Origin: Squalus acanthias
Taxonomy: Eukaryota
Reading direction: 5' to 3'
DNA: 64,000 bases
Assembly: GCA_030390025.1 (NCBI GenBank)
Contig: CM059446.1
Span: 11,904,001-11,968,000, forward strand
In this document: piece by piece, positions 1,805 to 60,740 of the stretch
Position numbering within the stretch: position 1 is the first letter of the stretch
Layout: each line of letters starts with the position of its first letter
Translations under genes and position numbers: made by a program
The notes under the pieces: model-generated
Seen by the model: the letters and a program-made list of their open reading frames with translations, nothing else
What the model was told of the DNA's origin: nothing
The model's database searches: none

Positions 1805-1879
1805 GGAGCAGCGCTCCGAAAGCTTGTGATTTCAAATAAAGCTGTTGGACTATAACCTGGTGTTGTGCGACTTCTCACT
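1805..1879 (+). mobile_element. Truncated family A Penelope-like fragment
   Basis: ggagcagcgctccgaaagcttgtgatttcaaataaagctgttggactataacctggtgttgtgcgacttctca matches ~25362-25436. Retains helix II and GAAA but lacks the CUGANGA box. Confidence 0.7.
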
Positions 1880-5971: not shown

Positions 5972-6717
5972 GGGCCGGATTTTACAACCCCTACAGGTGC
6001 GTATGAGGTGTGTACGCACCCATAGGGGCCGCGTAAGTGCCGGGTTTAGGCATGCGAAGCGCATGCGCTAAAACCCGGCACTTATGATCTGTTAAGAATC
6101 CTCTTGACAGTTCGCACGCATGCCCGGGAGACGGGCCTCCGTGGGCAGAGAGTTCCGCTTTCTGCACAACCTCCGCCCGCTGAAAGCCTTTAAAAATCTT
6201 ACGCCTGGTAAAAGCCTGCGTAAGGCCTGCTTTTACCAGCATATTAAAAAAAAAAAATTTTTTTCACTCATTTATAATTTTAAAATACTTTTTAAAAAGG
6301 TAAGTTTATTTTTAGCCCTGTAAAAAAAACTTTAATTATTTTTTTCAAAAAATTAAATTTTTGTTTAAAATATTGAATTTAATGTAATTTTAAATATGTG
6401 ATTTAAAAAAAAAATTATTTAATGTTTAACTTTTTTAAGTGATCCCTATTCATACTTTTGACAGATCTGTGCGTAGAGAACTGTCAAAAGTGTGAAGGGG
6501 GATTCCCTTCTTTGATTGGTTCCCCATGGCCCACGTGATCCTAGGGGCGCTTGCGAACCGCATGCGCTCCTGGGATAACTGGGCCTTTGTGCATTTCCTC
6601 GAGCAGAGGCCCAGGATCGGAAGTCTCGGGGCCTACGGAGCCTGCAAGTAAGTGCGTAGATTTTTTCCGATCAGAGGCATCCGCCCGCAGGAAGCCTCTG
6701 ATCAGAAATTCAGACCC
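5972..6717. mobile_element. Non-autonomous TIR element (MITE), PIF/Harbinger-like
   Basis: Imperfect TIR GGGCCGGATTTT / AAATTCAGACCC; GC-rich arms with hairpins (taagtgccgggttt..aaacccggcactta; gatcagaggc..gcctctgatc); AT-rich core. TSD is ambiguous (atg/atg if the left end is 5973). Confidence 0.7.
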
Positions 6718-17099: not shown

Positions 17100-17390
17100 C
17101 CATCCTAAAGCCTATAACTATTCTCATCATGATCATCTACTTTTCCAAGTTTTGTATCATCTGAAAACTTCAGAATACTGCTCCCTACACTCGTGTCGAG
17201 GTTGTTTATAAAAATTGAAAAGAGTAATGGACCTAAACCTGACCCTTGGGGAACATCACTGCAGACCACCTCCCAGTCTGAAAAAACATCCATCCACCAC
17301 CACCTTTTCCTTCCTGTCACTGAGCCAGTGGGAAACATCCATACCGCCACTTTCCCCTTAATTCCATGGGCTTCCACCTTCTTAATAAGC
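17100..17390 (-). mobile_element. CR1 RT fragment
   Basis: ORF 17105..17377: VPQGSGLGPLLFSIFINNLD...LKFSDDTKLG. Confidence 0.88.
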
Positions 17391-17393
17391 CAT

Positions 17394-17635
17394 AAAAACA
17401 GAAAATGCTGGAGATACTCAGCAGCTCAGGCAGCATCTGTGAAGAGAGAAACAGAGTTAACGTTTCAGGTCGATGACATTTCGTCAGAACTGGAGTTCCA
17501 GTTCTGACGAAAGGTCATCGACCTGAAACGTTAACTCTTGTTTCTCTCTTCACAGATGCTGCCCGACCTGCTGAGTATCTCCAGCATTTTCTGTTTTTAT
17601 TTCAGATTTCCAGCATCTGCAGTATTTTCTTTTTG
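17394..17635 (+). mobile_element. Non-autonomous Penelope-like mini-element (family B), near-perfect palindrome
   Basis: Arms ~17392-17494 and 17497-17600 are inverted with a 2-nt spacer, followed by tail ttcagatttccagcatctgcagtattttc. 15-bp TSD ttcttaataagccat at 17379-17393 and 17636-17650. Confidence 0.82.
17500..17536 (+). ncRNA. Minimal type I hammerhead ribozyme motif (family B)
   Basis: AGUU-CUGACGA-A-AGGUC-auc-GACCU-GAAAC-GUU-AACU. Helix I AGUU/AACU, helix II AGGUC/GACCU, palindromic helix III (ACGU), cleavage triplet GUU. The antisense copy at 17455-17491 has one helix II mismatch. Confidence 0.72.
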
Positions 17636-18406
17636 TTCTTAATAAGCCATCTTTTCTCGTAACCTCTCTCTGCCTCCCGTAATTAACTTTTTCAATTCCC
17701 TGCTGTATTAATTGGAGAGGAAGGGAAGGTGACGTAGGTTTGGTATTTTGTCAGCAGTCACGGTATATTGCAGGGACTTTAAAGAACTGAGAGCTGTTGA
17801 TTGGGGTCCATTTGGTAGGCCATTAATCTGGTTGTTGAAATGTCTGAGAACGCTATTTGTTTGCCTGAGACCTGGTATTCCTAAAAGCTGCTCATGTCAG
17901 TTTCTCCCTTCACCAATAATTGAATTTTAATCTGGAGCATGCATGAAATGTTGGTGCTCTACTTCTAACCAGCCACCTGACTGATAATTTATTTTTCTTA
18001 CTTTTCCAATGGATTTACGTGACTTACTGTATTAAAGAATTGAAAACATCTTGAAGTACTCTTATTAGAATAAATAGTGTTTGTAACAGGCTTACTGTGA
18101 TGAATATTACCAAGTTTTTAGTTGGCAACATATGCTGCCTTTGTATGAAGCGCATACATTTCGAGCGATTCAGGAGCAGTCATCTGATCCATACTGATGT
18201 TAACTTTATTAATTACATTAATAATATAACAGCAGGAAAATAAATTACTTCGACATCAGTTAAGCATCCTCATAGGATATAAATACAGTTTCAATTAATT
18301 ATAATTAGTATTTACTCTTGAGTTTTGCTCAATTTTTAGATTCAATAAGGTATATCAACCTAATATTTGTGTGCTTGGAATGTCTTTAGCTCTAGTAAAT
18401 GACAAC

Positions 18407-18610
18407 TTAATATTCAAAAATCTATCGATCTCTGTCTTGAGTATATTCAAGACAGAGAGCGATAGATTTTTGAATATTAAAGGAATCAAGGGATATGGGA
18501 ATAGTGCAGGAAAGTGGAGATGAGGTAGAAGATCAGCCATGATATTGAATGGCGGAGCAGGCTCAAAGGGCCAAATGGTCTATTCCTGCTCCTATTTCTT
18601 ATGTTCTTAA
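18407..18610 (+). mobile_element. CR1 3' end with 5' fold-back palindrome
   Basis: CR1 3' UTR (gatcagccatgat..gaatggcggagcaggctc..cctgctcctatttcttatgttctt); 18407-18440 is the inverse of 18447-18480. Confidence 0.85.
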
Positions 18611-18954: not shown

Positions 18955-19696
18955 GGCCCAGAAATTGATCTCGCTCTGTTCCCGCGGGGGTAAGCCTTCC
19001 CCGCGATGTCTCACCTCGCTTATGCTTTTTCTGATCCAGCTCGCACGAACTTGATGTTCCAGACATCAGCTGTGCTGGGCTTGCGTATCCCAGCGGCGCA
19101 GTTAATTCGTGCGAGCTGTGGGATCACGTGACTCAGTTAGAGCCAATGGCAGCACACCATCTTCCATTCATAAGTCTCACAGCATGGCTGTGAGACTTAT
19201 GAATCTTACACCCCCCCAAAATAACAGCTAAACCTCAATTAAATTAAAAAAAACCCATCACATTAATAAAATAAGTATAGTTAATTAAATTAACCATTTT
19301 AAATAAAAAATTAAATTTTTGAAAAAATTTAAAATCTTTTAAAAAGTTATAAAAATAAACTTACCTGTCTTTAAAGTCTATAAAAAAGATATACCTGTAA
19401 AAAAAAATTCAAAAAAATACTTAATTCACTACTTACCTTCTTAAAAGCGGGTCTTACTCCTCCTTTTTACATTTCCAAAATCTTCCCTACTTACCTGCGC
19501 GTCCAAAGCATGAAGTGCACAGCGTGCGCGCAGCCTGTAGCGCGCACGCGATGCAGCCAGGCCCCGCCCCCTTTTCGGAAGAGCAATTGCCGGTTTTCAG
19601 CGCATGCGCAGGGCATGCAGAAAACCGGCAATTGGAGTGGGAATACGCGAGAGTATGCAGTGCGTACTCTCGCGTCCCGGGATCAATTTTCGGCCC
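18955..19696. mobile_element. MITE, PIF/Harbinger-like
   Basis: TIR GGCCCAGAAATTGATC / GATCAATTTTCGGCCC; 3-bp TSD cat at 18952-18954 and 19697-19699; subterminal hairpins; AT-rich core. Confidence 0.8.
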
Positions 19697-21294: not shown

Positions 21295-21483
<189 letters not shown>

Positions 21484-22460
21484 TAAGTACAACAAAAATT
21501 TTCTACTGCATAATGCAGTAGCTCTTTAATTTCATAATGCAAAGGTTTTACAATGCCATTTTTCAAAGTGTGAGTCAACATTATTTTGTTTTAATTTGTT
21601 GTGTATTTTCTGCTACAATTTTGCATGCATGGACAACTGTGCTTCATTAATATTTGAAGCTGTCCTACTGCACGTACTTTCACACACCAGTGTACCAAAC
21701 AGTCATCCATGTTAACTTGGGGAGCTGCCACTTGGAAGCCATGTGCTTCGCTAGAGGGAGGGAGGAAAAAGTAAGGGTTCTTGGGTTGTAGTGGCCAACT
21801 ATCCAACTGTAGTTATGTAACGATATGGCCTTGTAGTTAGATAAAGAAAGGACAGCAATTGTGAAGGTCTGGAAAATGATCTTGGGCTCTTAAGAAATTG
21901 TGTAGTGTAGGGAGACTGAGAAAGGAGACAGGAAAGGAAAGAGAATAACTTGCAAGGAAAATTATATTGAGAATGAGTGATGTAAATTGCATATATTCAA
22001 AGAAAATGGAACAAGCAGGGCCCTTGGGAATTTTGGTTGTGGCTGGCAGTCCATCGAACTATGATGGGATATTGTGTAATCTAAGATGGTGGTCTGGGTA
22101 TTTAATCATTTTGAAGTTTTATGATAAAGTTGGAGATAATAGTCTAAGGTATTGTAGAGTCTATTTTGTGGTCTGTTAGCTAGGTAGCTCTGCTGTGCGA
22201 TTGTCAACCAGGCGTATGCTGGATTGCTGGTAAGCATATTAGGCAGGTTAGAAACTGATTTTTTACACGGCTTGTCCATGAGAGGGTAATTGAAGGGGTG
22301 GATCATATTTTGGGAAGAATTGAGTTTTGTGGAGTAGGACGATTCTGTTATCTAAGTAACATTTTTGTAAGTGTACAAATAATACATTTTGGAATAAATA
22401 GTAGTTTGCAGCCTTGAATGTTGAAGATCTTCACGGGTTAGCTTGCTTTTGTATCCTATC

Positions 22461-23400
22461 TGCTGACGACATGAAACTAGGTGGGATTGTGAGTTGTGAG
22501 GAGGATGCAAAGAGGCTTCAAGGCGATTTAGACAAGTTGAGTGAGTGGGCAAATACATGGCAGATGCAGTATAACGTGGATAAATGTGAAGTTATCCACT
22601 TCGGTAGGAAAAACAGAATGGCAGAGTATTATTTAAATGGTGACCGATTGGGAAATGTTGATGTACAAAGTGATCTGTGTGTCCTTGTACACCAGTCACT
22701 GAAAGCAAACATGCAGGTGCAGCAAGCAGTTAGGACGGCAAATGGTATGTTGGCCTTCATTGCAAGAGGATTTGAGTACAGGAGCAAGGATGTCTTACTA
22801 CAGTTATACAGGGCCTTGGTGAGACCACACCTGGAGTACTCTGTGCAGTTTTGGTCTCCTTACCTAAGAAAGGATATACTTGCCATAGAGGGAGTGCAGC
22901 GAAGGTTCACCAGACTGATACCTGGGATGGCAGGACTGTCGAATGAGGAGCGATTGGGTCGACTAGGCCTGTATTCACTAGAGTTTAGAAGAATGAGAGG
23001 GGATCTCATTGAAACGTATAAAATTCTGACAGGGCTAGACAGACTGGATGCAGGGAGGATTTTTCCCCTGGCTGGGGGGTCTAGAACGAGGGGTCACAGT
23101 CTCAGGATACGGGGTAGGACATTTAGGACTGAGATGAGGAGAAATTTCTTCACTCAGAGGGTGGTGAACCTGTGGAATTCTCTACCACAGAAGGCTGTGG
23201 AGGCCAAGTTCACTGAATATATTTAAGAAGGAGATAGATAGATTTCTAGACACAAAAGGCATCAAGGGGTATGGGGAGAGAGCGGGAATATGGTATCGAG
23301 ATAGAGGATCAGCCATGATCATGTTGAATGGCAGAGCAGGCTTGAAGGGCCGAATGGCCTACTCCTGCTCCTATTTTTCTATGTTCTATGTTTCTATCTA
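22461..23400 (+). mobile_element. 5'-truncated CR1 LINE, young, with 3' UTR and ttctatgt tail
   Basis: ADD..KLGG, KCEVIHFG, YRALVRPHLEYSVQFWSPY, RRMRGDLIETYKI, RRNFFTQRVVNLWNSLP; 3' UTR gaagggccgaatggcctactcctgctcct. Confidence 0.95.
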
Positions 23401-24635: not shown

Positions 24636-25075
24636 ATGACACACTCCTCAATTAATGTGTTGTGTGTTGCATGGTATTATTGTTAGCTTGTAGAGATTAA
24701 CAATCTCTTTCAAATTATTAGGATCAACTGCAAACCAATGTGGTGGGAACATTGTGTTTAATCAGAGTTTAAGACGGAATATAACACACTAGTTGTACAG
24801 CAGAAACATACGACTGTGACGAGCAGCTGGTACCGGTCCCGATTGGACAGACGGCTAGCATGCGTGAACAGTTCTCCGGCTTACGGCCTTTCTCCCTCTC
24901 GTCTAGAACCTCCAAGAATGGGTTGAGTCCGCTCCCGGAAGAGTGTTAGACCAGCCCCACTCTTGTATGGCTCTCCCTTCCACTGTCTGTGCTAAGGGCT
25001 TTTCAGGTCTTTCTCTTATACCCTTTTTTAGAAGTCGCACAACACCAGGTTATAGTCCAACAGTTTTATTTAAAA

Positions 25076-25113
25076 TTACGAGCTTTCGGAGCTGCTGCCC
25101 CTTCGTCAGGTAA
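25076..25113 (-). ncRNA. Minimal hammerhead ribozyme motif, identical antisense copy
   Basis: Exact reverse complement of 25351-25388. Confidence 0.72.
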
Positions 25114-25350
25114 AGGTACAGTGAGGGAATCTATTACACAGTATATATACACAGAGAGCACAGTATATATACACAGTATCTATTACACAGTATATATACA
25201 CGGACACGTTGGACCCCCTGTGACCCACCTCATTGTCTTAGCTGTACTCTGATGTGTCTTTGATGTAATGCCTCCCTAACAGATTGTATCACTGCAGACA
25301 AATTGCTCTCTGTGTATATATACTGTGTAATAGATTCCCTCACTGTACCT

Positions 25351-25388
25351 TTACCTGACGAAGGGGCAGCAGCTCCGAAAGCTCGTAA
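25351..25388 (+). ncRNA. Minimal type I hammerhead ribozyme motif (Penelope-type)
   Basis: UUAC-CUGACGA-A-GGGGC-agca-GCUCC-GAAA-G-CUC-GUAA. Helix I UUAC/GUAA, helix II GGGGC/GCUCC, loopless palindromic helix III AGCU, cleavage triplet CUC. Confidence 0.75.
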
Positions 25389-28300
25389 TTTTAAATAAAA
25401 CTGTTGGACTATAACCTGGTGTTGTGCGACTTCTCATTTTTGTCCACCCCAGTCCAACACCGGCATCTCCGCGTCATGACCCTTTTTTAGGGGTGGGCCT
25501 GATGTAAAATATGGACAGGACCGTTTAACCTGTAAGGTTCTCTTCCTAAACCAAGGTGCCCAATGGCACGTTGAGTTCTTTGTCTCAACTTCGAGATGAA
25601 GATCCTCCCTCCAGGAGGGGTCTTCACAATCATTACACATGCTTTATTGTTTATACGTTTTGAAGGCCTACCCATCGGAATTTCTCTTATCTCCCTTGTC
25701 CCTATCCTCCCTAGTTTGGAGCCATTCTCGGCTATCGGATGTTATCAGTTATTTATGTTCATGCTGTTCATGCAGCTTTAGCTATGCAAAACTAACTTTT
25801 ATTATCAGACTATTGTACCATGGAATGAATCATTAAATTCCCAAAGATATCTTCTATTCTATTCTCATACACTGGTTAACTTACGCATTTTGAAGCAGTT
25901 TTGTAAAACAAAGTCAAAATCCTAACTTAGCATTATAATATGGTTATTAGCAGTAATGGAAGAAACATAGGTGTTGGGCCTTCAAAAACAACCTTCCTAG
26001 CACACAAACAGCAGACAGCTAGCTTGGAAACAAGGTCATATAACATTTTACACCGTGACAAGTCATATAACATCCGCAGGGAACCAAAACATAAGCAAAT
26101 TCTAAGCATCTATCCAGTTATTCTAACACCAATCTGAAGAGACTTTTTGTCTCAAGTTCTAATACATTCATGTAAACACAGTCTTATTCGCATCACAATT
26201 TCATTCGCATAACCCCATATATTTTGGACACCACTGATTTCTAACAATGTTTCTGTGATTATAAAACAGTTTGCCCTACATTACAACAGTGACTGCTCTT
26301 CAAAAAAATACTTTGTTTGCTGTAAAGCGCTTTGGGATGTCTGGTGGTCGGGAAAGGCTCGATATAAATGTAAGTCTTTCTTTCTCCAACTTGCAGTACG
26401 CAATGCCACAGGAGATCCACTGCTGCTGTTCCAGAAAACCCTCAAATGTTTGAAATATTTTTGCACTATTAAATCTATCAGTATTTCTTTTTGCAATGCA
26501 TGTTTTTGAATGTGCTCCCAGGTGCAGTGCAGTGTTCTGTCCACATTGTTATGCTCTGCAATCTTAAATAACTTGAACCATAGGCTCACAGAAATTAGAG
26601 CACAGAAGAAAGCCATCCAGTGAAGTTGTCTTCTGCTGGGACTAGCCCTTCAACTGGAGCTATCTACTCCAATCTCATTGCTAATAATAAAAAAAGTTAC
26701 TATAGTTGTGAACATAACGGTATCCATAGTAGGAACAGTAACTGCAACAATGCTTAGCAACAAATCCAGATGTGCATGCAGTGAAGCACAATGATGGAAA
26801 CATCCTGTTCGTCGACCTATTTGTTTTCCCTGTTGACTTGCATGTTAACTTGTGAAACCCTGAGTACATCCACATTTTTTGGGTGAGGAAGTAGGAAGTT
26901 TGTTAATACATTGCATGATCTAACCACTGTGCCTAAGTAACAACAGTGACTGACTGTACTTCAAAATCAATTAGTTGGATGTGAAGTGCTTTGAGATAGC
27001 CTGATGGATGTGATGAGGTGCTGTCTAAATGCAAGTTCTTTCTTACACGACTAAGAGTGAAAATAATTCCAAATATATTCTAGAAAATGACCAGTCTGAT
27101 GAATTGTAAGTATAAGGTTACATAGATTACTTTTACAAAGCTAATAAGAAATTGCTATTGAAAAAAATAAAGATTGGTAGATTTAAAAAGTTAATTTGTG
27201 AGAGAATTATATAACTATAAAAAAAAAAGTCAAAGTGTGCATATTGTAAGATTTTAAAACTGATCACAGGGTTAATAATTTTTGAGACACTTCCAAAAAG
27301 CTCTTTGGAGCAAAAAAGTGGAAATAGCAGAAGTTGACAGTAATAATGTGCTATGCCTTATTTAAAATCAGTTCAAGCATGCAGACTTGCATTTCTAGGC
27401 ACATAAGTAGCAACAATATCTAGCCTATGGTATGAGAGATTTAGAAATGGTTAGGAGCATTGTATTTATTTAGTGTTGAACCTTAGAATGTCAAACTTTT
27501 TGTGTTGTTCAGGAGGTGAGATGATGATTGGTTGTCTTTGACGGTAGCCTCTATTACAGTACATTTAACAATACAACCATGTTGTATCACAGCACACTTC
27601 GCCCCTTTTAAAAAATACTCGTTGCTTGCAATATTGCTTAAATTCCTGATGAAATAACATTACTAGTAAGGTCAAGTTGTAAAGGAAAAGTACTTGCTGA
27701 TCTGTGTTGAGGTATATATTGTGTATGCATAGTTTGTAATTATGAAGAGAAGTCTTATTTGTGGTATTCCAGAAGAGGCAAAAAGAAGTTCTGTTATGAA
27801 TGAGGAGCAAATTAATAAGTATGAGTATTCCATTCATAAGACATTTCCGCTCATATTTACCTAAAAAAAAAGGTAATTAAACATGTCGTGTTCAGAATGA
27901 TTTTCAATTTGATTTAATATTATAAAGTGATTATAAAAGACGCATTACAGTAAACAACATAAATTATGGCAGTAATGAGCATCATCTGGTGATTCTTAAG
28001 AGTAAATTATCCAATTCAATTAATCTAACATAGTTAGAGGACAGCAGAGTAATGTCTTAATATAATTCTTGTTGAAGGCACACCAAAGTGTTCAAAAACA
28101 GTTTCCTTAGCTTCCTGCCTTTCATTGGCAGCCTGCTCCCTGTGAGTTCATGGATAGATGGGCTCCAGTCACTGAACCAACCTTTCGGTAAGGGTGCATT
28201 TATTCTGCAAATACCAGTCCGAGACTGGCAATATCAGTTTCAGCCAGGCAATATTAATTTCTACTGCCTAGCCTAGCTTCAGCTGCAATGCTCTGGCCCA

Positions 28301-28976
28301 AGAAAGCACTCCTGCATGCATATTTACACATGGGCATAAGAGCTTCCCTCCTAGTGGTTAGAATTTTAACTGGGAGCATGGCACTTGCTAAAAATTAAAG
28401 TCATTTATTGATGAGTTGCAGTCTGAACACATGCCAAGACCGTTACGAAGAAAATGAGTGCTATTTATAGTGTGCTATGAGACATTGAAAACTGAACAAA
28501 AATGCTTTAACAATATATTGGTTTTGTTCTTGCGTTTAAATATTGGAAGTGTTATAAGTTCATCCCTAAAAGATGCTGAGTAGCATGATTGGTATATGTT
28601 AGTATTAATCCTGCAGCATCTTATTTTTGTTGGCTTCAGTTTGTATTTAGAAATAAAACTTGGGGTTCAAGGCCTTGAAAATGGTGATCAAGCTGCACAC
28701 CCTTAAAATTAGTATTGTTTTTTAATCTTAAACAAAATTAGCTCCATTACATTAATTGATGAACAGTTCCAGTTTTCATAATCCATATTCCACATTGAGC
28801 AAATAGGTGATCTCAGTTTTAAATACTGATAGCAGCTTTTGATCTTGTAATGATCAAAAATTAATTTTAAAATAGAGCAAACCAATAAACCATAAGATAA
28901 CAGAATTTGTACAAAAGAATTTCTTGACAACACTGAAAATGTTTTAATTCACAGGAACTACATTGAGAAACTGTTA

Positions 28977-29151
28977 TAAAAACAGAAAATGCTGGAGATA
29001 CTCAGCAGGTCAGGCAGCATCTGTGAAGAGAGAAACAGAGTTAACGTTTCAGGTTGAAACACCAGATGCTGCCTGACCTACTGAGTATCTCCAGCATTTT
29101 CTGTTTTTATTTCAGATTTCCAGCATCTGCAGTATTTTCTTTTTGTATTAG
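28977..29151 (+). mobile_element. Family B Penelope-like mini-element with central deletion
   Basis: Same arms and tail as 17394-17635, but the centre including both CUGACGA boxes is missing. 14-bp TSD ttgagaaactgtta at 28963-28976 and 29152-29165. Confidence 0.8.
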
Positions 29152-29199
29152 TTGAGAAACTGTTAGTCATTTTCAGGAGTCTTGTGTCATTTGTGTACC

Positions 29200-31839: not shown

Positions 31840-33630
31840 TAGGTTACAGCGCAGATTCACTCGGATGCAGCCTGGTATGAAGAAATTAAAATACGAAGAA
31901 AGACTTGAAAAATTAGAACAGAGGCGATTAAAGTGTGATTTGACAGAGTTGTTTAAAATGAAGATGAGATGGAACAGAATAGATAGAAACAGACTGTTGC
32001 TAGTGATTGAGGGGTCTACAATGAAGGGATATGGATAGAAGATTAAATGTAAGCGATTTAGACCAGAGAGCAAGGTGATGGAAGGTGTCGTCGACAGTGC
32101 TATCAAGCAACACTGACTCACCAATAACCTGCTCACCGATGCTCAGTTTGGGTTCCGCCAGGACCACCCGGCTCCAGACCTCATTACAGCCTTGTTCCAA
32201 ACATGGGCAAAAGAGCTGAATTCCAGAGGTGAGGTGAGAGTGACTGCCCTTGACATCAAGGCAGCATCTGACCGAGTGTGGCATCAAGGAGCTTTAGTAA
32301 AATTGAAGTCAATGGGAATCGAGGGGAAATCTCTCCACTGACTGGAGTCATACCTAGCACAAAGGCAGATGGTTGTGGTTGTTGGAGGTCAATCATCTCA
32401 GCTCCAGTACATTGCTGCGGGAGTTCTCAGGGCAGTGTCCAGGGCCCAACCATCTCCAGCTGCTTCATCAATGACCTTCCCTCCATCATAAGGTCAGAAG
32501 TGGGGATGTTCGCTGATGATTGCACAGTGTTCAGTTCCATTCACAACACCCCAGATAATGAAGCAGTTCGCGCCCGCATGCAGCAAGACATTCAGGCTTG
32601 GGCTGATAAGTGGCAAGTAACATTCGCGCCACACAAGTGCCAGACAATGACTATCTCCAACAAGCGAGAGTCTAACCACCGCCCCTTGACATTCAATGGC
32701 ATTACCATCGCCGAATCACCCACCATCAACATTCTGGGGGTCACCATCGACCAGAAACTTAACTGGACCAGCCACATAAATACTGTGGCTACAAGAGCAG
32801 GTCAGAGGCTGGATATTCTGCGGCGAGTGTCTCACCTCCTGACTCCCCAAAGCATTTCCACCACCTACAAGGCACAAGTCAGGAGTGTGATGGAATACTC
32901 TCCACTTGCCTGGATGAGTGCAGCACCAACAACATTCAAGAAGCTCGTCACCATCTAGGACAAAGCAGCAAGCTTGATCGGCACCCCATCCACTACCTTA
33001 AACATTCACTCCCTCCACCACCGGCGTACCGTGGCTGCAGTGTGTACCATCTACAAGATGCACTGCAGCAATTTGCAAAGGCTTCTTTGACAGCACCTCC
33101 CAAACCTGCGACCTCTACCACCTAGAAGGACAAGGGCAGCAGATGCATGGGAACACCATCACCTGCACGTTACACACCACCCTGACTTGGAAATGTATCG
33201 TTGCTGGGTCAAAATCCTGGAACTACCTCCCTAACAGCACTGTTGGGAGTACCTTCACCTTCATGGACTGCAGCGGTTCAAGAAGGCGGCTCACCACCAC
33301 CTTCTCGAGGGCAATTAGGGATGGGCAATAAATGCATGCCTTGCCAGCGATGCCCACATCCCAGGAACGAATAAAAAAAAAAAGGACCTTTTTACACACA
33401 GGGTTGTGGGACTGTGGAATGCACTACTGGAGTTAGTAATTGAAACAGGCCGTGTCAACATTTAGGAATAGGTAAGATATGTGGTTGAACGATAGGAGGA
33501 TAATAGGATATGTGAACGGCGCGGGCACATGAGATTCGGATGTTTGCTTGTGTGCAAGTTAAACACCAACACAGACTGGTTGGGTCGAATGGCCTGTTTC
33601 TGTGTTGTAATTTCTATGTAATTCTATGCT
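31840..33630 (+). mobile_element. Old CR1 3' fragment (31840-32070 and 33384-33630) split by a second LINE
   Basis: acagcgcagattcactcggatg...tttagaccagagag resumes as tttttacacacagggttgtgggactgtggaatgcactac and ends in ggtcgaatggcctgtttctgtgttgtaatttctatgtaattctatg. Confidence 0.8.
32071..33383 (+). mobile_element. Nested non-LTR retrotransposon (CR1/Jockey-group RT), 5'-truncated, A-tailed
   Basis: QFGFR, LDIKAA.DRVWH, QGSV.GP..F..FINDLP, MFADDCT, YKAQVRSVMEYSPLAW with frameshifts; ends gaataaaaaaaaaa. Confidence 0.9.
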
Positions 33631-34784
33631 GTCTAATTATTTTAGGCCCAACTGGATCCGGAAATTGAAACACTGTGACAGACTCATCCATCGCATTTTA
33701 CATACTGCCAAGTCCCGATGCCCAGGAGGATCTCATTTATATTAATAAAAGACTGGGATATTTTAACTAACTTTCCCTAATTTATTGGCAGTTTGTTTTC
33801 ATGGATTTGTTGAGAAAGTGCAGAGCCTAGCTGCAAGTGTTAAATTGGTTTTTATTTTATTTAGTTATTTATAGACTTTAGGGATTGTCACAGAAGTTCT
33901 TTCTCCCATCACAGAACTACAGATTTTTTTTGGGGTGGGGGGTGGTGGGGTGGGTGAGGATGCGAAAATCTGACCTCTTCACTAAGCTACCTGAAATAAT
34001 TTTATTTGTGGGGAAAAAAAGCATCCAATTTAACAAAATTATCAGAACACAACAGATGCCTGACAGATTTCTGCAACACATTTCAATGCAGCATTTAAAG
34101 GACTTTACTCAGGGATATATTTTCAGTCCAAGATTTTACAAATACTCTATTTTGAAATGTGCTGGTCCATCTTGCCGTGATTCAGTGCTTCAGTGCAGGT
34201 GATGAGATCTAGATGATACTTTAATGTGAACTGATATTGCAATACTTTAGGGAAACAGCGAAAGAGATTGCAAGATCAAGAAATGAAAATGTGCACAGAA
34301 GACTTAACTACTGAAACCATGATGCCATCAATAAGTCTCAGCAGTTGATGCTGTTTATCAAAATATGAGTCACTGGACTTTTATAAAACTAATGTACAAG
34401 TACTAGTAATTTGCCCACGATGCTGACCAATCAGTTAATGAATATAATTTTTTTTAACATACAAGATGGTGACAGGGTGGGGCAGGGAGGACAAGAGACT
34501 TCAGAAACCCACTCCACAACATCATCTACTGGTTAGAGCCGGCAACTTCTTCATAATCTGGCAGTGGTTTACATAAGCAGTTTCAGTATTAAATGTTTAC
34601 ATAAAAGCATGACTGAAAATCGTGACAACGGAAATTTGGACAGACAGTGCACGCATACACAACATTTAAAAAATAATATATAGATATGCATAAAGCCTAA
34701 ATTATTTAGTATATCGTGCAATTTCATATTCATAATAAAATAATGAGAAGTCAAGATCTATATTGAGCACTATACCTTTTGAAG

Positions 34785-35482
34785 TACAGGTAAAAGACTG
34801 AGGGGTGACCTGATAGAGGTCGTTAAAATTATGAAAGGGTTTGATAGGGTAGTCGTAGAGAAGATGTTTCCAATTGCGGGGGAGACCAGAACTAGGAGCC
34901 GTAAATATAAGGTAGTCACTAATAAATCCAATAGGGAATTCAGGAGAAACTTCTTTACCCAGAGAGTGATTAGAATGTGGAACTCACTACCACAAGGAGT
35001 AGTTGGGGCGAATCGCACAGATGTATTTAAGGGGAAGCCAGATAAGCACAAGCGGGAGAAAGGAATAGAAAGATATGTTGATGGGGTTAGACGAGGAAGG
35101 GTGGGAGGAGGCTCGTGTGGAGCAGAAACATAGAAAAATAGGAGCAGGAGTAGGCCATTCGGTCCTTCGAGCCTGCTTCGCCATCCAACATGATCATGGC
35201 TGAACCTGTATCTCAATACCATATTCCCGCTCTCTCCCCATACCCCTTGATGCCTTTTGTGTCTAGAAATCTATCTATCTCCTTCTTAAATATATTCAGT
35301 GACTTGGCCTCCGCAGCCTTCTGTGGTAGAGAATTCCACAGGTTCACCACCCTCTGAGTGAAGAAATTTCTCCTCATCTCAGTCCTAAATGTCCTACCTC
35401 AAGTCCTAAATGTCCTCCTCCGGCATAGACCAGTTGGGCCGAGTGGCCTGTTTCTGTGCTGTAAATACTATGTAATATGTGT
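34785..35482 (+). mobile_element. CR1 3' fragment interrupted by an antisense CR1 tail
   Basis: RLRGDLIEVVKIMKGFDRV..RRNFFTQRVIRMWNSLP; the 3' UTR resumes at ~35420 (ccggcatagaccagttgggccgagtggcctgtttctgtgctgtaa). Confidence 0.88.
35125..35400 (-). mobile_element. Young CR1 3' end nested in an older CR1
   Basis: Reverse complement is nearly identical to ~23113-23395. Confidence 0.9.
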
Positions 35483-37079: not shown

Positions 37080-37694
37080 GAGCTAAAAATTGAGTAACGC
37101 CCCCTTTGTGGCGCTAACTACTTTTAGCGCCCCAGAAAAATTAGCGCCCACGCGACGGAAATTGAGTGGTAGTGCCCCAAGAGGGAAGCGGGGCATTATT
37201 GGGAGCGCCCCGCCTCCCTGTTGGGGCGCTGCGAGGGAATATCGCGGCGCTACATGGCGATGCGGCACGTCGCGCCGCGGTAGTGCAGGCCTTCCCCTTC
37301 TTAAAGGGGAGGGGCCTTGCGCAGCGCGACCCCCGGGGATCGGGAGTGCCGGCAAAAGAGCCCGGCACTCGAGAAGTGCCGGGCTCATGGAGCGCAGCCG
37401 GCACTCCGCAGGGGGGCGGGTAAGAAGGCTGGGGACAGGAGCGGAGGCAGGTGCTGGCAGGCGGCCAGCAACAAAAATGGCTGCCCTGCACCTCGCCTTT
37501 AAATAGCGCCTCCCCGGCCGCAGGTAGGCCCCCCTCACCCTGTCGGACATAGCGTCCGGCGGTAAGTCAGGGGGCGCTCCCGAAGATCGCGAGCAGGGCG
37601 CTGCGCACGGCGATGATGTCATCGCCACGGGGCGCTGCCGGTTACTGCCGCCGCTGCTAACCTCCCGCTGAATTTCGCAACCAAATTTTTCCCC
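37080..37694. mobile_element. GC/CpG-rich MITE-like element
   Basis: Abrupt GC island with imperfect TIR GAGCTAAAAATTG / CAAATTTTTCCCC, flanks tat/cat, repeated agcgccc motifs and internal hairpin gagtgccgg..ccggcactc. Confidence 0.65.
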
Positions 37695-40600
37695 CATGCC
37701 TCTTCTCTATAAATGTTTAGTTATTATATTCAATACAGATCCTTCCTCTTGCTTTGACAATGGGCAGTGTATCTTGGTAATGTCATCATACCCACCTTTA
37801 CTTGAATGACTGGCTTCTCAGCTCAGTCAAGTTCCTGGAGAAATACCTAGCAAATTATTTGACGCTAAATGATCATCTGGATGAAATGTTGCCTGGTGCC
37901 AGACTGAGAAAAGGATTGGTTCCCTTTGAGAAGGATGCTTTGGAGGGATCAGTCAAATGGCCTGGCAGTTTCATTCACTCATAGTTCTGGAGTCAAGAAT
38001 GCTTCTGAATCTATTAATACAATGACACGTGGTGAAAAATAGAAGTGACTTTCTGAGGCCTTTATAACTGCCTTTTCGACTGAATCTCTTTGCTTGAAAC
38101 TGTTCTTTGACAAGAAAATCTGGATAAGTTCATCTTCTGTGTGACACTGTCCTGCAGGAGTAGGACAGGGCATATTGGATATCCTCTAGGCGCTCTGAGT
38201 GGAAAGTTCATCAGGACCCACAAATGTCTGAAGATCCTTTACATCAAGAGATGAACATGAACATCACTTTAAATGCTTAGAAATCTTAATAATTCCCATT
38301 GCTTTCCACTCAAACAGCTGGATACTGCTGTCCTATATTATCTGAAGCAACTCTGCAGGTCCAAGGCTCTGTTCCTGTCTCAGAGAATAACTTTAAAGGT
38401 GACTCATCTAGCCATGACATAGAGTGTTTTACTGATTATCTAAACAGATACAAATATCAGTGGGCTATACAGCAAAGTGCCTTCTTTGGACTTGATTTCA
38501 CCACCTCTACTCATGGTCAGCTCAGAGAAAAGTCTTGAAGTGGATGCTTTCTTCCTTTCCTGGAGCTACGTGGAAATCATACATTACTGTTGAATGAACT
38601 GAACTGATGGTCCATCTTGTCTGAAGGATGGCGCCCTTCATTTAAGGATTTATTAGTAAAGAAAAACAAAGCTGTAACTACCATAACTATCAGTTGAAAG
38701 TTAATGCTATCTTGGCAGCTTTTGAACTCCATTTCTGTCATAACCAAGTGATACACAGTGTAATTTCTAGCTCTTTATGAATAACTGTATTTTTTGAATG
38801 GGCAGCTGAGCACATTACTTTTTTGTCGCATTTACTGAATAATCTAACAATCACATTTAACAGTAGTGCTAAAAGGCTTCAAAATGATGAATTTATAAAA
38901 CTGTGTTGCATAAAACTAATCTGTGCTGATTTTATTTGTATTTTTCCACTCCTCTTGTGCTTTTGTTCACAATGACTGACAGTGCTGTGTTTTTATGTCA
39001 TTGTCCTGTCTGCAGCAGGGTAGTTCAGACTCTGATTAGCCAAGTAAAGGAATATATTTGATTAGCATTGATGCAGCTGCTCCTCACTGACAGTGAAAAG
39101 GTCAGAGACAAGCTGTGGGTGGCCTTCATGGTGTGCTTCTCGAGTTAATTGAATTAGATGTATAGCATTCTGATGTAAGGCAGTGCCAAAAAGACATTAG
39201 TGTCTCCAAAAAGTACTGCACTTCTGTGTGTTTAAAAAAAATTATTCAAATTTGAATGTGGTGCGGAATATTTTGTTTGATTTATAGTCCCAGTAATTGG
39301 GATGAGTGCATGCTTTCCCATTTAAACATTTGGCTTGTGCTTCTATAAATAGGAAATGCATTGACCCCTGATTACTGATCACTAAGCTAACTTTTGCCTT
39401 TGTGTTAGCTCCTCTTAAATATTCTGGCCAGCTTCTGTTGTCTGGCATTAGCACAGAAATTGTAACATTGTCTTTTTACCTCCCACCAACAGATGACAAG
39501 CATGTCTGCTGTCTGACATGTGACACTGCCTGATTGGGAAATCTCAATGATCATAAATCAACAGCTCCAAATTACCCTCAAATCTGTCTGTATTGTATAG
39601 AAAATGCAAGGAAATGGTAATAACACGGTATGGGATGGAATACTTTGGTCAGTGAAGTAGTGTGATGCAAATGGAGGCTCTATACTGCGTCCGGCCTGCA
39701 CTATACCTAATTTAAGAATGCTCCATGCAACATGGCTATTGTTGTGCTTGACTGGTGCACACATTGTTTATGTAAGTCCATTGCAGTATTAGTACAGTAA
39801 TTATATAAGCCCAGCCCAAATTGACCATCACCAATTATTTTTTTCAGATTCTCCTCCCGGTGCAACCTCTTAATTGCATGGCCGAAACTGAAAATTTGCC
39901 ATACAGGGAATTACTGGTGCAAATCATTTAACACCAGACAAAACCCACAATTAAAATAACAGTCAGATAAATAGTGTCATATTTTTGAAAATTGGGACCT
40001 TTTATTTGATAGGCTCATTTGCAGGCCTCTCTGAAAGCTATCAGCATGTTTTGCAGGCAGACTTTTGTAGCCATTGCTTACATTTCTACTTTATAAAATA
40101 TTTTGTGTTCTCCAAATGCTTTCAGAACAAAAAAAATCAGTGGCAGTATCATTTACTAATACATTTTGTTTTAAAATTGTACTATTCTGTGCAACCAACT
40201 GAGTTTGTGACTTGGATTACTAATATCCACGCAGTATTTGATGTGGGTAAGGAGACAGTGCTCTGATTTTGTTTTTGCTGAAGTTGTTGTAAGGTTAAAA
40301 TATTGACACTGGCTCTTCACAGCTACCGCTAACAACGTGCATGGATGCAAATTAATGGTTAAGTTCAGAGAAATCCACTGGCCTATTTATGTTGTGCAGT
40401 AAATTGAACTACACTCTTCAGTAAGCCTTGAAAGAAATGTAATAGAGCCTGTAATTTTGTTCACAACTTTGCCTGCAGTCTATACTTAACACACACATAT
40501 AATTTTACCTAGTTATATGAAATGGGATGGCATTACTCTGAAGTGGGGAGATAATAAGCTGAACTGTACCACTGTTTGCCGCATTAAGTGCATAATCTTT

Positions 40601-41499: not shown

Positions 41500-41907
41500 C
41501 CAGTGGGCTATTTGCACTGCAAGTACAGGAGCTGGGGGGTCTTGTTAAACCAGTGGGCTATTTGCACTGCAAGTACAGGAGCTGGGGGGTCTTGTTAAAC
41601 CAGTGGGCTATTTGCACTGCAAGTACAGGAGCTGGGGGGTCTTGTTAAACCAGTGGGCTATTTGCACTGCAAGTACAGGAGCTGGGGGGTCTTGTTAAAC
41701 CAGTGGGCTATTTGCACTGCTAGTACAGGAGCTGGGGGGGTCTTGTTAAACCAGTGGGCTATTTGCACTGCTAGTACAGGAGCTGGGGGGTCTTGTTAAA
41801 CCAGTGGGCTATTTGCACTGCTAGTACAGGAGCTGGGGGGTCTTGTTAAACCAGTGGGCTATTTGCACTGCTAGTACAGGAGCTGGGGGGGTCTTGTTAA
41901 ACCAGTG
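41500..41907. repeat. Minisatellite, 8 copies of a 50-51 bp unit
   Basis: Unit ccagtgggctatttgcactgc(a/t)agtacaggagctggggggtcttgttaaa, head-to-tail with no spacers. Confidence 0.97.
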
Positions 41908-44106: not shown

Positions 44107-44262
<156 letters not shown>

Positions 44263-51891: not shown

Positions 51892-52852
51892 CATAGAGTC
51901 ATATCGGCACAGAAGGAGGCCATTCGGCCCATCGAGTCCGTGCCGGCTCTCTGTAGAGCAATCCAGTCAGTCCCATTCCCCCCCTCTATCCCCGTAGCTC
52001 TGCAAGTTTATTTCCCTATCCAGTCTCCCCTTGAAAACATTGAGTGCCTCCGCTTCCACCACTTCCGTCGGCAGCGAGTTCCAGGTCCTCACCACTCGCT
52101 GCGTAAAAAAGTTTTTCCTCACATCCCCCCTGTATCTCTTGCCCAAAACCTTAAACCTGTGTCCCCTAGTCCTTGTACCATCAACTAGTGGGAACAGCCT
52201 TTCCCCGTCTAGCCTATCCAAACCCGTCATAATCTTGTACACCTCTATCAAATCACCCCGCAACCTCCTTTGCTCTAATAAAAACAAATCCAGCTTCTCC
52301 AACCTGTCCTTGTAGCTAAGATCCCCCATCCCCGGAACCATTCTGGTAAATCTCCTCTGCACCCTCTCAAGTGCCTTCACATCCTTCCTAAAGTGTGGTG
52401 ACCAGAACTGGTTGCAGTACTCCAGTTGTGGCCTAACCAGCGCTTTATAAAGGTTCAGCATAACTTCTCTACTTTTGTACTCAATACCTCTATTTATGAA
52501 GCCCAAAATCCCATATGCTTTGTTAACCACTCTCTCAATATGTCCTGCCATCTTCAGGGACCTATGCACATTAACTCCCAGGCCCCTCTGTCCCTGCACA
52601 CTCTTTAAAACTGTGCCATTAAGTGTATATTGCCTCTCCCTGTTCCTTCTGCCAAGATGCATCACCTCACACTTCTCTGTATTAAATTCTATCTGCCACT
52701 TGTCTGCCCATTCTGCTAGCCTTTCTGTGTCCTGTTGCAATCGATTGGTATCATCCTCACTGTTTGCCACACCCCCAAGTTTGGTGTCATCGGCAAATTT
52801 AGAAATTCTACTCTGTATTCCAATATCCAGGTCATATCAAAAAAAGCAGTGA
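51892..52852 (-). mobile_element. 5'-truncated CR1 LINE
   Basis: ORF 51967..52770 carries CR1 ORF2 motifs (KCEVMHLG, YKALVRPQLEYC, RRLRGDLIEVYK). KFADDTKLGG lies upstream; 3' UTR present. Confidence 0.95.
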
Positions 52853-56200: not shown

Positions 56201-57539
56201 AATCTGGCCACAGTGATTGGCTATTTTATGAAGTATTTTACCACTTTCTCATTTCCTGGCTCTGCTGGTAGAATCCCTGGCTGAGTGACCTGTTCCCAAA
56301 TCTCTGCCAGTGCCCCTCTGAAACCTAAAAAGGGTGTGATAGTGGCCCAGGCTGACTCCAAAAAAATATGACCATGTAAGTTGCTGGATTGTCATAAAAA
56401 TCCAACTGTTTTACTGATGCGCTTCAGGGAAGGGAACCTTGACTGTGCCATCCTTTTAAATTGCGTTGAGTACTCCTTTTAATAGGCAAGGTGCAGTAAT
56501 CTGTGTATACTCCTAATTGACATGCTGTGCTATGACTCATTAGGATGTAATTAACCTACCTAATTAGTGTTACAATGTGCATATTTAACTGAAAGATAGG
56601 ATTGTAGCAGTCAAAAAGGAAATATGCTGTGAAATGAAGGTACTGGCCTTACTTACTTGTTCAAAGTAAGTAATGAGGTAAAACCTATTTTTTATTGATT
56701 AGTATAAATATTAATGAAAACTCTAATTAAAGGTCATTTAAATTGTTGGGCAGCTTAGCTTACAGTGCTCAGCTTGTCACATGATATATGTGAATACCTC
56801 CAGCCATTATCGTTTCCTCCATAAATGTGATCTGTTTCTGTATTTTGATTTGAACATATTTTTGTTGTAATATGTATTTTTGCTATGTGCATTCAGGCTA
56901 TGAAAAACAAAATTAATGTAGTTGAACTGTGGACTGGGTGATCTTAATTACTGTGTTGGAAAATGTTTTCAGGATGTAAGTGTGTTGATTAATGATTGCA
57001 CTATTTAACAAAGCAATTAAGAACCCTTATTTGGAAATATTAAGATTTATAGAAATGGCTATTGTTGGGAAAGATTTTTAGTAAATGATTTTAAAGTATC
57101 CATTAGAGTTTACTGCATTACAAGGCAAAGGTGTCCAGTAAACGAGAGATTCAGCATATTAAGGCAAAAAGTAAATTAAGCTAAATTAGCAGTGCTGCAG
57201 AGTATAATTGAAAACTGATTAGCTGTCAGTTCGTGCTGATTTGTGTTTCTTCATGACGATTAGCCAATAACATGATGCTTCGTTACTGTTCACATTTATA
57301 TCTGTTAGTCGTGTCAAGTTTTCCAACTGGACTGTATTTTTCAGCTGGACTCTGCCGTCTGGGTGAGCGGGTAAGCAAAGGCAAGGTGATTCCTTAATTG
57401 AGAGCATTTTCTCCCATTCCGCTTACGAGTGACTTTAGCAAGAGACCAGAGAACAAGGTGCTGGGAAATAATACAAGCGGCAATGACCCTACAAGAGAAG
57501 GTGAAATTAAATATTGAGGCAAGGGAGAATAGTAATATG

Positions 57540-57694
57540 ATAGCAAAATACTGCGGATGCTGGAAATCCGAAATAACAACAGAAAACGCTGGAAGAACTC
57601 AGCAGGCCAGGCAGCATCCGTGGAGAGAGAAACAGAGTTAACGTTTCAGGTCGAAGACCTTTCGTCAGAACTGGAAAAAAGCAAGAAATGAAAT
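57540..57694 (-). mobile_element. Family B Penelope-like mini-element, single arm
   Basis: Reverse-strand homolog of the family B arm plus tail. 14-bp TSD agaatagtaatatg at 57526-57539 and 57695-57708. Confidence 0.8.
57636..57672 (-). ncRNA. Minimal hammerhead ribozyme motif (family B), intact
   Basis: Minus strand reads AGUU-CUGACGA-A-AGGUC-uuc-GACCU-GAAAC-GUU-AACU; only the helix II loop differs from 17500-17536. Confidence 0.72.
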
Positions 57695-58029
57695 AGAATA
57701 GTAATATGTTTGATTAATCAGTTTTGGGAAGATCATCACTTCAAACTTAAAAATAGCAGAGCAATGGCATTCTATTGCCACTCAACATTCCGCTGCTGTC
57801 AGTGCAGTGGTTCCCATCCCTCATGTCCTTGTCCCAGCCCAGATCATGGTCTCACTTTCACAAGTCCATCAGCCAACCACTATCTCACAGAATTAAAAGT
57901 CTTGCGTGTTTTCCTGATGCTTGTGGCACACATCCAGCCGTGGCACACTCTGGGTCGTAGGGAGTGAAAGTTTGCTTACAGGACCGGTCTATGGCACTGC
58001 CATGAGGCAAATATCTGGTGAAGCCCTAA

Positions 58030-58407
<378 letters not shown>

Positions 58408-60537
58408 TGATTTAATTATAATTGAATATAATCAAAGCTGCTCCTGAAAAAAAATTCTACTAAGAATCTAGTTTAGTTTATTGTTTTGAAAGTAAAATGG
58501 TGCACTTTTTAAAGATTCCAGCAAATTTTGGCTGATTTCCGTGCCGAACACATTCTCAAGGACCATTGCACTATACTTAATGAGACAATTCTGAAAATTG
58601 CATTCTCCACAAGCCATTTCTTCACTGCATTGTGATCCTCCTCTTTAATTCTTACATTTCTGCACTATTAAGAATCTTGCTGCATATTTCTATTAGTGGT
58701 TGTTTATGTAATGTATGAGTTTATCTATAAATTGTATGTATTCCGGAAATTTTGTGTTTATAGATTCACATACGTAGTATATGTGACTTTGTTATTTGAT
58801 GTGCACGCGCAATCAAATTTTTAAGTACGTGATAGGCTGCAAACTGACCACCTGCCGACGACGAGAGACTATCTTCCCCCTCTCAACTTTGAGGAGATGT
58901 AAAATAATAGGGAGGAAATGGCTCCACATTACAATACTTCTGTCACAAAGATTTGGGAGTTGTCATAAATTCAGAAGTTTAAAAAAAAATCTCAAATTGA
59001 TCCTGCATTGCCACTGAGAAAATGTCAGCTCTTGAAAATAGTCCCAATTATTTTCACAAGAGCATGAATGCCAGGTTAGGCTGGCATACCTGAGTGTGTG
59101 TGTGTGTGTCTTCTCGAATATTAGAGCAGGTTCTTTGAAAAGCAAGAAATATTTTTGTACATTGGTTGGTCTCTTTCTCCCCCCCCCCCCCCCCCCAGGC
59201 CACCTCCCACTCTTTTATCTGTGTAAACAGGTAATGAGTAGATTCTTGTGAATAAATTACGACAACACCAACTCGTCCATCGCTGACAAGATAGATACCT
59301 GAAGCTCGTTTATTATGAGTTATTCCCTGGAGGCTTTTAAACTGGCTGGCTGTTACTTTCACTGTTGAGTGAATCACTGTATGTGAGGAAGGTAAACGTG
59401 TGCTACAATCAGTCTCCATTAAGTGACTTTTTTTTCCTCTCCAAGCTTGTTTTCCTCCAGCTTCTAGCAATCAGCTGTATCCTGCTGATTAGAGTACTTG
59501 ATTCAGTACTTAGTCTGTTTAATTCAAACTTGCTTCCAATTAGTCGTTGAATTCTGATAGAAACTGAACAGGGTGATAAAAGTCAGGACGGTACCTGTTG
59601 TGTGTGTAAAATGATGCAATACAATAAATAGAACACTGTCAATACCAACAAAAGCAGACTTTTATATAAAAAATTACTGCTTGCCAATTTGAAGGTTTGA
59701 TCAATGATGAATAAAAGCAGTGCATTACCAACAATTAGTAATAGATCAGTGAGTTAATAATTTGCTGACTTATTTTATACCTGTAATTTTTTGTGTGTGG
59801 CCTCAGAGAGATTATGCAGTGCACCCATTGCGGATTGAAGCAAATACATGCTATGATTTTATCAAACAATTTAAAGGAGAAGAATTCTCCAAGGATAAGT
59901 ACAGTGAGTGGCCAATACTTAAGGGCAAGGGATCCCTTGTAACATGTCTGCTGCTTGAGATGGTTGTCACTTATGCTGCGTATTATCTTTTTCAAAAACT
60001 AGATTTCCACAGTCTTTGCAAAGGTATTGGCTGCACTGGCGGATAAGACTGCAGTCAGTCAGTTTGCACAGAGACCAGTGATATGTTGTAAAGCACACTG
60101 TGAAGTATCCCCTTGCCCTGCATCGTCCCAGTGTGTCTCCAGCATTCATTGCTAATGAAATTAGATCAATGTCGGGCTCTACAACAGAGCTTTGGAAATG
60201 TTTTTTTTAAGTATACATTATTTTAAATACTAACTATACAGCAGTGATCTTGGGGTAAGCTCCCATTCCCGGCACAGACCGCCTCCTGTGCAGTAAATTT
60301 CTATGATTCTAAATATTTTTACGTTGCTTTAAATAAGCAATTAATAGGGCAAAACTTCTAAATTGATACAAACAAAATATTCTGAAGGAATTAAAGCATT
60401 GTTAATTCTTTAACACATTTAGATGAATAAAAATCAGGTCTCAAGAAAATACAGCTAATTTGATGAGAATGCTTTGTGAGTACAATATTTCAGTGAGTGA
60501 ATTAAAATCTACTAAAAATAGTTTTGCAAATTCTAAC

Positions 60538-60740
60538 GCAGCTGAGAAGAGAAAAGGCAGCTTAACATTTCAGGTGAAGACTCCTCATCAGAACATGGAT
60601 TTGAATTCTGACAAAGGGTCTGCACCCCAAACATACGCTAACTAATATTTATCTCTCTAGAGATGCCGAAAGGCCTGCGATGTAGGCCCTTCATTTCTGC
60701 TTTTAATTCAAATTTACAGCTTTGGCAGTTCTTACTTTTT
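60538..60740. mobile_element. Old, degenerate family B-like inverted element
   Basis: ttaacatttcaggtgaagactcctcatcagaa (minus-strand CUGAUGA...GAAA) faces ttctgacaaagggtctgcaccccaaacat, followed by a decayed tail. Confidence 0.5.

Follow-up and report, generated by a model that had tools for sequence, protein, structure and literature searches.

A probable 5'-truncated Penelope-like insertion with paired minimal hammerhead motifs in a PARG intron of the shark Squalus acanthias

An inverted-repeat element at positions 25020-25490 of a 64-kb stretch of Squalus acanthias DNA (the whole of this stretch is the window) is, with high probability, an insertion of a Penelope-like element (PLE) of the endonuclease-bearing kind, heavily truncated at its 5' end, in an intron of the shark PARG locus, and the same confidence covers the insertion mechanism that is proposed for it. 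What appears new is this shark family member; its architecture and the pairing of hammerheads on opposite strands have already been published. According to Craig et al. (PMC8557442), PLE insertions are truncated at the 5' end, where an inverted copy, itself 5'-truncated, is often found, and one of their ends bears a tail of 30-40 bp. Arkhipova et al. report copies in which the inverted pseudo-LTR is the shorter of the two, the tail measures 31 bp and the duplications span 8-10 bp, and give head-to-head as the most frequent orientation of inverted pseudo-LTRs (PMC3846280), and the commonest Penelope form described in D. virilis has inverted terminal repeats (Schostak et al., PMC2377424). Moreover, a study of 2014 described dual minimal hammerhead ribozymes (min-HHRs) that sit 100-700 bp from each other on opposite strands, and it also shows a truncated PLE whose 5' end carries a second, opposite-strand min-HHR (Cervera and de la Pena, PMC4209133).

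Layout, host locus and coding content of the element

The arms at 25030-25160 and 25304-25434 are exact reverse complements (131/131), the match stops at both sides, and the gap between the arms is 143 nt. They are flanked by a 12-bp direct repeat at 25020-25031 and 25479-25490; among 20,000 random window positions with equal zone sizes, a direct repeat of at least 12 nt occurred by chance in 0.15% of cases, and one of at least 10 nt in 1.6% of random window positions. The left repeat and the left arm overlap by 2 nt, so that the target-site duplication is 10 or 12 bp long; A/T occupies 8 of its 12 positions, in a window of approximately 60% A+T. The exact 131-bp inverted repeat, the 12-bp flanking repeat, repeats internal to the spacer and the lack of a reverse transcriptase (RT) or endonuclease ORF had been put forward in the original prediction, and all four were recovered. 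Its account of the element omitted the segment of 44-46 nt (25435-25478) that lies 3' of the right arm and has no mirror at the left, which makes the element asymmetric. The features, named according to the PLE reading, are as follows.

25020-25031, no strand: left target-site duplication (12 bp; 10 bp without the 2 nt that it has in common with the arm)
25030-25160, minus strand: inverted, tail-less, 5'-truncated pseudo-LTR copy, complementary to 25304-25434
25076-25113, minus strand: minimal type I hammerhead, mirror copy (descriptor match, C3 at 25109; predicted cut after H17 at 25080)
25159-25201, minus strand: two additional partial copies (24 nt and 18 nt, exact matches) of the arm segment that contains TATATATA
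25202-25303, plus strand: unique inner segment, with no other match in the window
25304-25434, plus strand: direct pseudo-LTR arm, its 3' 74 nt 92% identical to the copy at 1805-1877
25315-25344, plus strand: candidate TATA box TATATATA (25315-25322) and candidate initiator TCACT (25340-25344), at motif level
25351-25388, plus strand: minimal type I hammerhead (descriptor match, C3 at 25355)
25435-25478, plus strand: PLE tail, right side only (44 nt, or 46 nt with the 12-bp duplication)
25479-25490, no strand: right target-site duplication, repeating 25020-25031
1805-1877, plus strand: second, older fragment of the same family, 68/74 identical to the right arm

Within the spacer, 25178-25201 and 25159-25176 match 25312-25335 and 25310-25327, respectively, and these two repeats are best read as re-priming by the reverse transcriptase; alternatively, they may reflect a repeat polymorphism in the master element. 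The inner segment probably represents element sequence upstream of the arm, either 3' UTR or the 5' part of the pseudo-LTR, and the head-to-head junction lies somewhere within it. TATATATA and TCACT possibly constitute a TATA box and an initiator, a weak lead at the level of motifs, and the same motif pair is reported from an A. vaga pseudo-LTR (PMC3846280). The last triplet of the tail is ATG (25476-25478), and the frame running into it is 31 aa long; for other PLEs, an overlap of pseudo-LTR plus tail with the ORF start is described (PMC3846280). Positions 25451-25458 of the tail are able to pair with 25403-25410, in a stem that does not differ significantly from shuffled sequence (z -0.74).

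The window is the shark PARG locus. One exon matches PARG; its two top-scoring relatives are just 70-75% identical, and the next are shark PARG proteins, at 96-98% over the exon. When nine named PARGs of cartilaginous fish were mapped, six exons came to lie on the plus strand, from 10078 to 58284. The element lies within a 22.6-kb intron between the exons at 21322-21483 and 44122-44208, which have contiguous protein coordinates; it is on the PARG-transcribed strand, and the nearest mapped exon is 3.5 kb away.

No RT or endonuclease frame is present inside the element. Among the 211 stop-free window frames of at least 65 aa, Pfam detected no GIY-YIG domain and four RVT_1 matches, the nearest approximately 7 kb from the element; these four frames are presumably LINE fragments. 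A protein search with an antisense element frame of 67 aa returned four matches, in which the inspected stretches were unrelated repeats or of low complexity, and a sense frame of 44 aa and an antisense frame of 40 aa had no match among longer proteins. A 25-nt arm pattern was without match in bacterial and archaeal genomes, as expected, and ARAGORN found no tRNA gene in the whole window.

The hammerhead motifs and their predicted state in transcripts

A re-implementation of the min-HHR descriptor from Fig. S7 of Cervera 2014 (PMC4209133) was run on the 64-kb window, where it matched four times: at 25355 (plus strand) and 25109 (minus strand) in the element, and at 17504 (plus strand) and 57668 (minus strand) in a second family. 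In 1000 dinucleotide shuffles of the whole window it matched eight times in total, with at most one match per shuffle. The plus-strand hammerhead consists of a 4-bp helix I (25351-25354 with 25385-25388), the core at 25355-25361, a 5-bp helix II that includes one G-U pair (25363-25367 with 25372-25376), GAAA at 25377-25380, a palindromic 15.1-16.1 at 25380-25383, and C25384 as H17, after which the cut is predicted. Four recurring traits of PLE min-HHRs, including covariation within families, have been described (PMC4209133), and three of these are present: the additional nucleotide after position 9 (A25362), the G10.1-C11.1 pair (G25363-C25376), and a palindromic 15.2-16.2 (G25381/C25382). Covariation can be read in the one independent copy, 1805-1877, in which A-U replaces G-U and thereby keeps helix II, and from which the 5' strand of helix I is absent. 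The original prediction had located one minimal hammerhead in each arm, with helices I and II pairing and H17 at C25384, and had ascribed the motif to the minimal type I kind of PLEs; the descriptor matches on both strands and the consensus traits bear this out.

The same prediction had named Infernal hammerhead models as a further check, and these gave no support, as Rfam had no match at the gathering threshold in the whole 64 kb. At E<=10, the region 24800-25700 yielded two chance matches, mir-880 (E 4) and ArcZ (E 2.9), and no hammerhead model; an Rfam null would be expected for a motif without helix III. Folding energy gives the hammerhead no support either, with z values from -0.74 to +0.82 relative to shuffles for the four element segments that were folded. 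Given this Rfam result and the unremarkable folding energies, the evidence for the hammerhead is the conserved core and its pairing rather than stability.

Both hammerheads face outward, so that in read-through RNA, whichever strand is transcribed, the antisense arm is synthesised ahead of the hammerhead. With arms identical at all 131 positions, the originally predicted arrangement, in which a transcript of either strand carries one hammerhead together with its perfect antisense, stands. When the plus-strand RNA of the whole element (the PARG direction) was folded, the mean arm-arm pairing probability was 0.997 and the probability of helices I and II was 0 to 8 decimals; the minimum-energy fold of the minus strand is the same long hairpin. 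The duplex of core and antisense was calculated at -84.4 kcal/mol versus -17.5 for an active-type dimer, and after removal of the left arm the hammerhead helices are predicted at merely 0.09-0.18. Because the antisense arm is made first and the predicted fold lacks the hammerhead helices, the hammerhead is probably silent at this locus, with both arms locked in a 131-bp duplex; this silence is a computed prediction, as equilibrium folding is not a cleavage assay. Only transcripts starting within the element would escape the antisense arm. For min-HHRs in general, monomers are reported not to cleave and dimers to cleave weakly (PMC4209133).

Related copies, proposed origin and alternative explanations

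The older fragment at 1805-1877 starts inside helix II and ends at most 2 nt from the end point of the tail-less arm; no flanking duplication of at least 6 nt was found for it. A second hammerhead-bearing family, unrelated to the first, has copies at 17379-17650 (15-bp direct repeat), 28963-29165 (14 bp) and 57526-57708 (14 bp). The copies at 17379-17650 and 28963-29165 both run in the order duplication, inverted arm, direct arm, tail, duplication; their inverted arms stop at the same point within 1-2 nt, their direct arms continue as a tail of approximately 35-37 nt, and their inner junctions, which hold short hairpins, differ. The third copy (57526-57708) is single-armed, and the paired arms of this family are imperfect (100/104 in the copy at 17379-17650; 47/48). 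The window thus holds five ORF-less remnants of two families, a small sample of two and three copies, respectively, all in-window, in which the outer ends are fixed and the inner junctions vary. Such a pattern argues for repeated truncated insertion from a longer master rather than the copying of a fixed unit, and the family copies, which differ at their inner truncation points, look like separate insertions from such a master.

According to the proposed mechanism, an autonomous family member elsewhere would have supplied RT and GIY-YIG endonuclease, and a staggered cut, 10-12 nt apart, would account for the duplication that is observed. The PLE tail is bounded by two adjacent internal start sites, and cDNA synthesis would have used both: the distal one for an arm with its tail, and the proximal one for the tail-less arm on the other side. 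Both cDNA copies would have ended early, the left one after two rounds of re-priming on the TATA-like segment, and a head-to-head joining of these truncated cDNAs would give the product that is seen in the element, for which this order of events is a proposal. The simplest route would be priming from both nicked strands, and fold-back of a single cDNA would give an equal product. Both the left arm's top strand and the right arm's bottom strand are antisense to the element RNA and adjoin the duplication, as would be expected had each nicked strand primed one cDNA; the short hairpins at the second-family junctions would fit fold-back. A biochemical precedent comes from a purified anole PLE protein, a predicted dimer, which is reported to cut and extend both target strands, to start reverse transcription at two adjacent internal sites bounding the tail, and to insert in vitro without need for hammerhead cleavage (Frangieh et al. 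2024, PMC11167929). The way in which PLEs form inverted ends is treated as unproven, with further steps awaiting validation, in the accounts available (PMC8557442, PMC11167929). The hammerhead would be a passenger of the pseudo-LTR that needs a same-sense partner, and most likely the present copy was defunct from the moment it inserted and is catalytically silent.

Several other explanations bear on the same observations. The original prediction had called the unit a non-autonomous element, and transcription and re-insertion of the whole 449-bp inverted-repeat unit by PLE proteins acting in trans was accordingly weighed, and is unlikely. The unit holds the cis signals that are likely needed (pseudo-LTR, tail, and a possible TATA box and initiator), PLE proteins are described as able to act in trans on sequence lying between pseudo-LTRs and mobilise it (PMC3846280), and non-autonomous derivatives of PLEs are known (PMC8557442; bioRxiv 10.64898/2026.07.22.740005). 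However, neither the spacer nor its junction has a second copy in the 64 kb, the other family copy at 1805-1877 is a single arm with a different truncation, inner junctions vary between the second-family copies, and the proximal start site would be hidden in the 131-bp duplex; shared outer ends combined with different inner truncation points thus do not bear out the original label. Quite improbable, when taken as one joint claim, is an 'inverted retrozyme', in which the whole 449-bp unit would be a self-contained, PLE-mobilised non-coding shark family, the antisense arm would keep the hammerhead off in read-through RNA, and transcripts started inside the unit, in both directions from the TATA-like repeats, would lack the antisense arm and could dimerise, cleave and re-insert. 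Long perfect inverted repeats, a duplication of 10-12 bp and the lack of an ORF would also suit a non-autonomous DNA transposon, i.e., a MITE with the long terminal inverted repeats of Mutator-like elements and a chance hammerhead-like motif, which is made very unlikely by a repeat that is not terminal at the right (44-46 nt precede the right duplication), by truncated single-arm copies, and by descriptor matches far above chance. A DIRS element was rejected on the presence of a target duplication, as DIRS elements are characterised as having inverted termini without one (PMC8969392).

The position on the transcribed strand of a 22.6-kb PARG intron, where a 131-bp duplex would form, and perfect arms that could reflect selection might point to a hairpin or ribozyme retained by the host to act on the PARG pre-mRNA, through editing, as a source of small RNA, or in splicing. 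There is very little probability in this, since the nearest mapped exon is 3.5 kb off, comparable insertions are common in the window, and the arms are expected to be perfect at birth. Fold-back chimeras that arise in libraries or assemblies typically show 100% identical inverted arms, as is the case here, and the perfect inverted repeat could in principle be such an artefact; the flanking duplication and one-sided tail, the arm end in common with the independent 92% copy, and a second family in which the arms of this layout are imperfect (100/104; 47/48) make this extremely unlikely.

For the truncated PLE insertion, the absence of differences between the arms (0/131) bounds their divergence below 2.3% (95%). 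At the pedigree-based rate of 7e-10 per site per generation reported for the epaulette shark (PMC10587355), this bound allows approximately 1.6e7 generations, by hand arithmetic that takes the rate from a different species and leaves gene conversion aside. The arms match better than those of the second-family copy at 17379-17650 (100/104), and observed/expected CpG is 0.63-0.78 in the element versus 0.36 in the window, with high values also in the immediate flanks (0.71 and 0.52). The insertion had originally been called young and recently mobilised: relatively recent it appears to be, and youth in absolute terms, with a bound of just 2.3%, is loosely supported.

Relation to known elements

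Endonuclease-bearing PLE insertions (Penelope/Poseidon, Neptune, A. vaga Pen2; PMC8557442, PMC3846280, PMC2377424), as described, have the same head-to-head truncated pseudo-LTR as the shark element, in agreement with the inverted pseudo-LTR arrangement predicted originally, as well as the one-sided tail, the target duplication, the 5' truncation, and the pair of TATATATA and TCACT. The shark element differs in that it has no ORF, in that its tail, at 44-46 nt, slightly exceeds the 30-40 bp that have been published, and in that its inverted copy has two re-priming repeats on the inner side. Relative to the metazoan PLE min-HHRs as described in PMC4209133, it fits the descriptor, is likewise U-rich upstream and AU-rich downstream, and has its opposite-strand pair within the same 100-700 bp; the alignment in Fig. 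S3 of that paper includes neither this sequence nor any cartilaginous fish. In Poseidon PAc of Anolis carolinensis, as described in PMC11167929, and in the shark element alike, the hammerhead is followed by two end points that bound the tail and fall in a potential stem-loop. However, the PAc ORF starts at stem II of the hammerhead, where no long frame starts in the shark element, and the sole ATG downstream of the shark hammerhead is at the tail end.

Non-LTR retrozymes (PMC7229834; bioRxiv 10.64898/2026.07.22.740005) are, like the shark element, non-coding, hammerhead-bearing and related to pseudo-LTRs, and they have been reported in one chondrichthyan genome (bioRxiv 10.64898/2026.07.22.740005). 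They are described as head-to-tail tandem repeats with mostly canonical hammerheads and circular RNA, in contrast to the inverted pair, the minimal motif and the one same-sense hammerhead per transcript found here. A non-LTR retrozyme was rejected because the two copies stand in inverted orientation and the motif is absent from the tandem arrays in the window.

No paper describing the shark family was found in the open-licence literature, and Repbase/Dfam or the supplements of the retrozyme preprint may hold relatives. Thousands of min-HHRs are reported for coelacanth and Xenopus (PMC4209133), and the PLE hammerheads of chondrichthyans appear thinly described. By itself the element is one more truncated PLE insertion, of modest value as a clean specimen; a genome-wide catalogue of such copies in the shark could test two-strand priming versus fold-back.

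Coding and repeat content of the window

The following features were annotated:
10078-58284 (+): shark PARG, six coding exons, catalytic region
1913-2344, 22405-23226, 32272-32958, 34783-35133, 51967-52836: open frames of reverse transcriptase (RT)-like retrotransposon fragments
41500-41907: minisatellite in which a 50-bp unit is repeated ~8 times with 98% matches
6442-6503: short palindrome, 81%
18407-18480: short palindrome, 95%, adjoining a LINE-like 3' end
19166-19204: short palindrome, 92%

The RT-like fragments are presumably LINE-like, and in-window comparison revealed 96% identity between 23113-23385 and 35127-35398. Within a PARG intron, a GC-rich stretch (37080-37700) contains long open frames that overlap each other and are without a Pfam match.

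Insertion site of the Penelope-like element

Both flanks of the truncated Penelope-like element, 24810-25019 and 25491-25750, displayed higher G+C and CpG than their surroundings, which suggests that the insertion landed in the interior of another repeat of ~470 bp; no further copy of this putative host repeat was encountered within the 64-kb window.

A second hammerhead-bearing repeat family

A second hammerhead-bearing family is represented by three copies in the window, which are bounded by direct repeats of 14-15 bp:
17379-17650: copy inserted in an RT fragment
28963-29165: copy
57526-57708: copy

Sequence motifs for intact minimal type I hammerhead ribozymes were detected in this family at 17504(+) and 57668(-) (positions of C3) with a re-implemented RNAmotif-type descriptor (PMC4209133). 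A degenerate hammerhead-like core at 60480-60620 (-) is similar to this family and does not satisfy the descriptor. Judged by sequence organization, the second family repeats the Penelope-like layout seen in the element: target duplication, inverted arm, direct arm, one-sided tail, and target duplication in the copies at 17379-17650 and 28963-29165, and a single arm between its direct repeats in the copy at 57526-57708.
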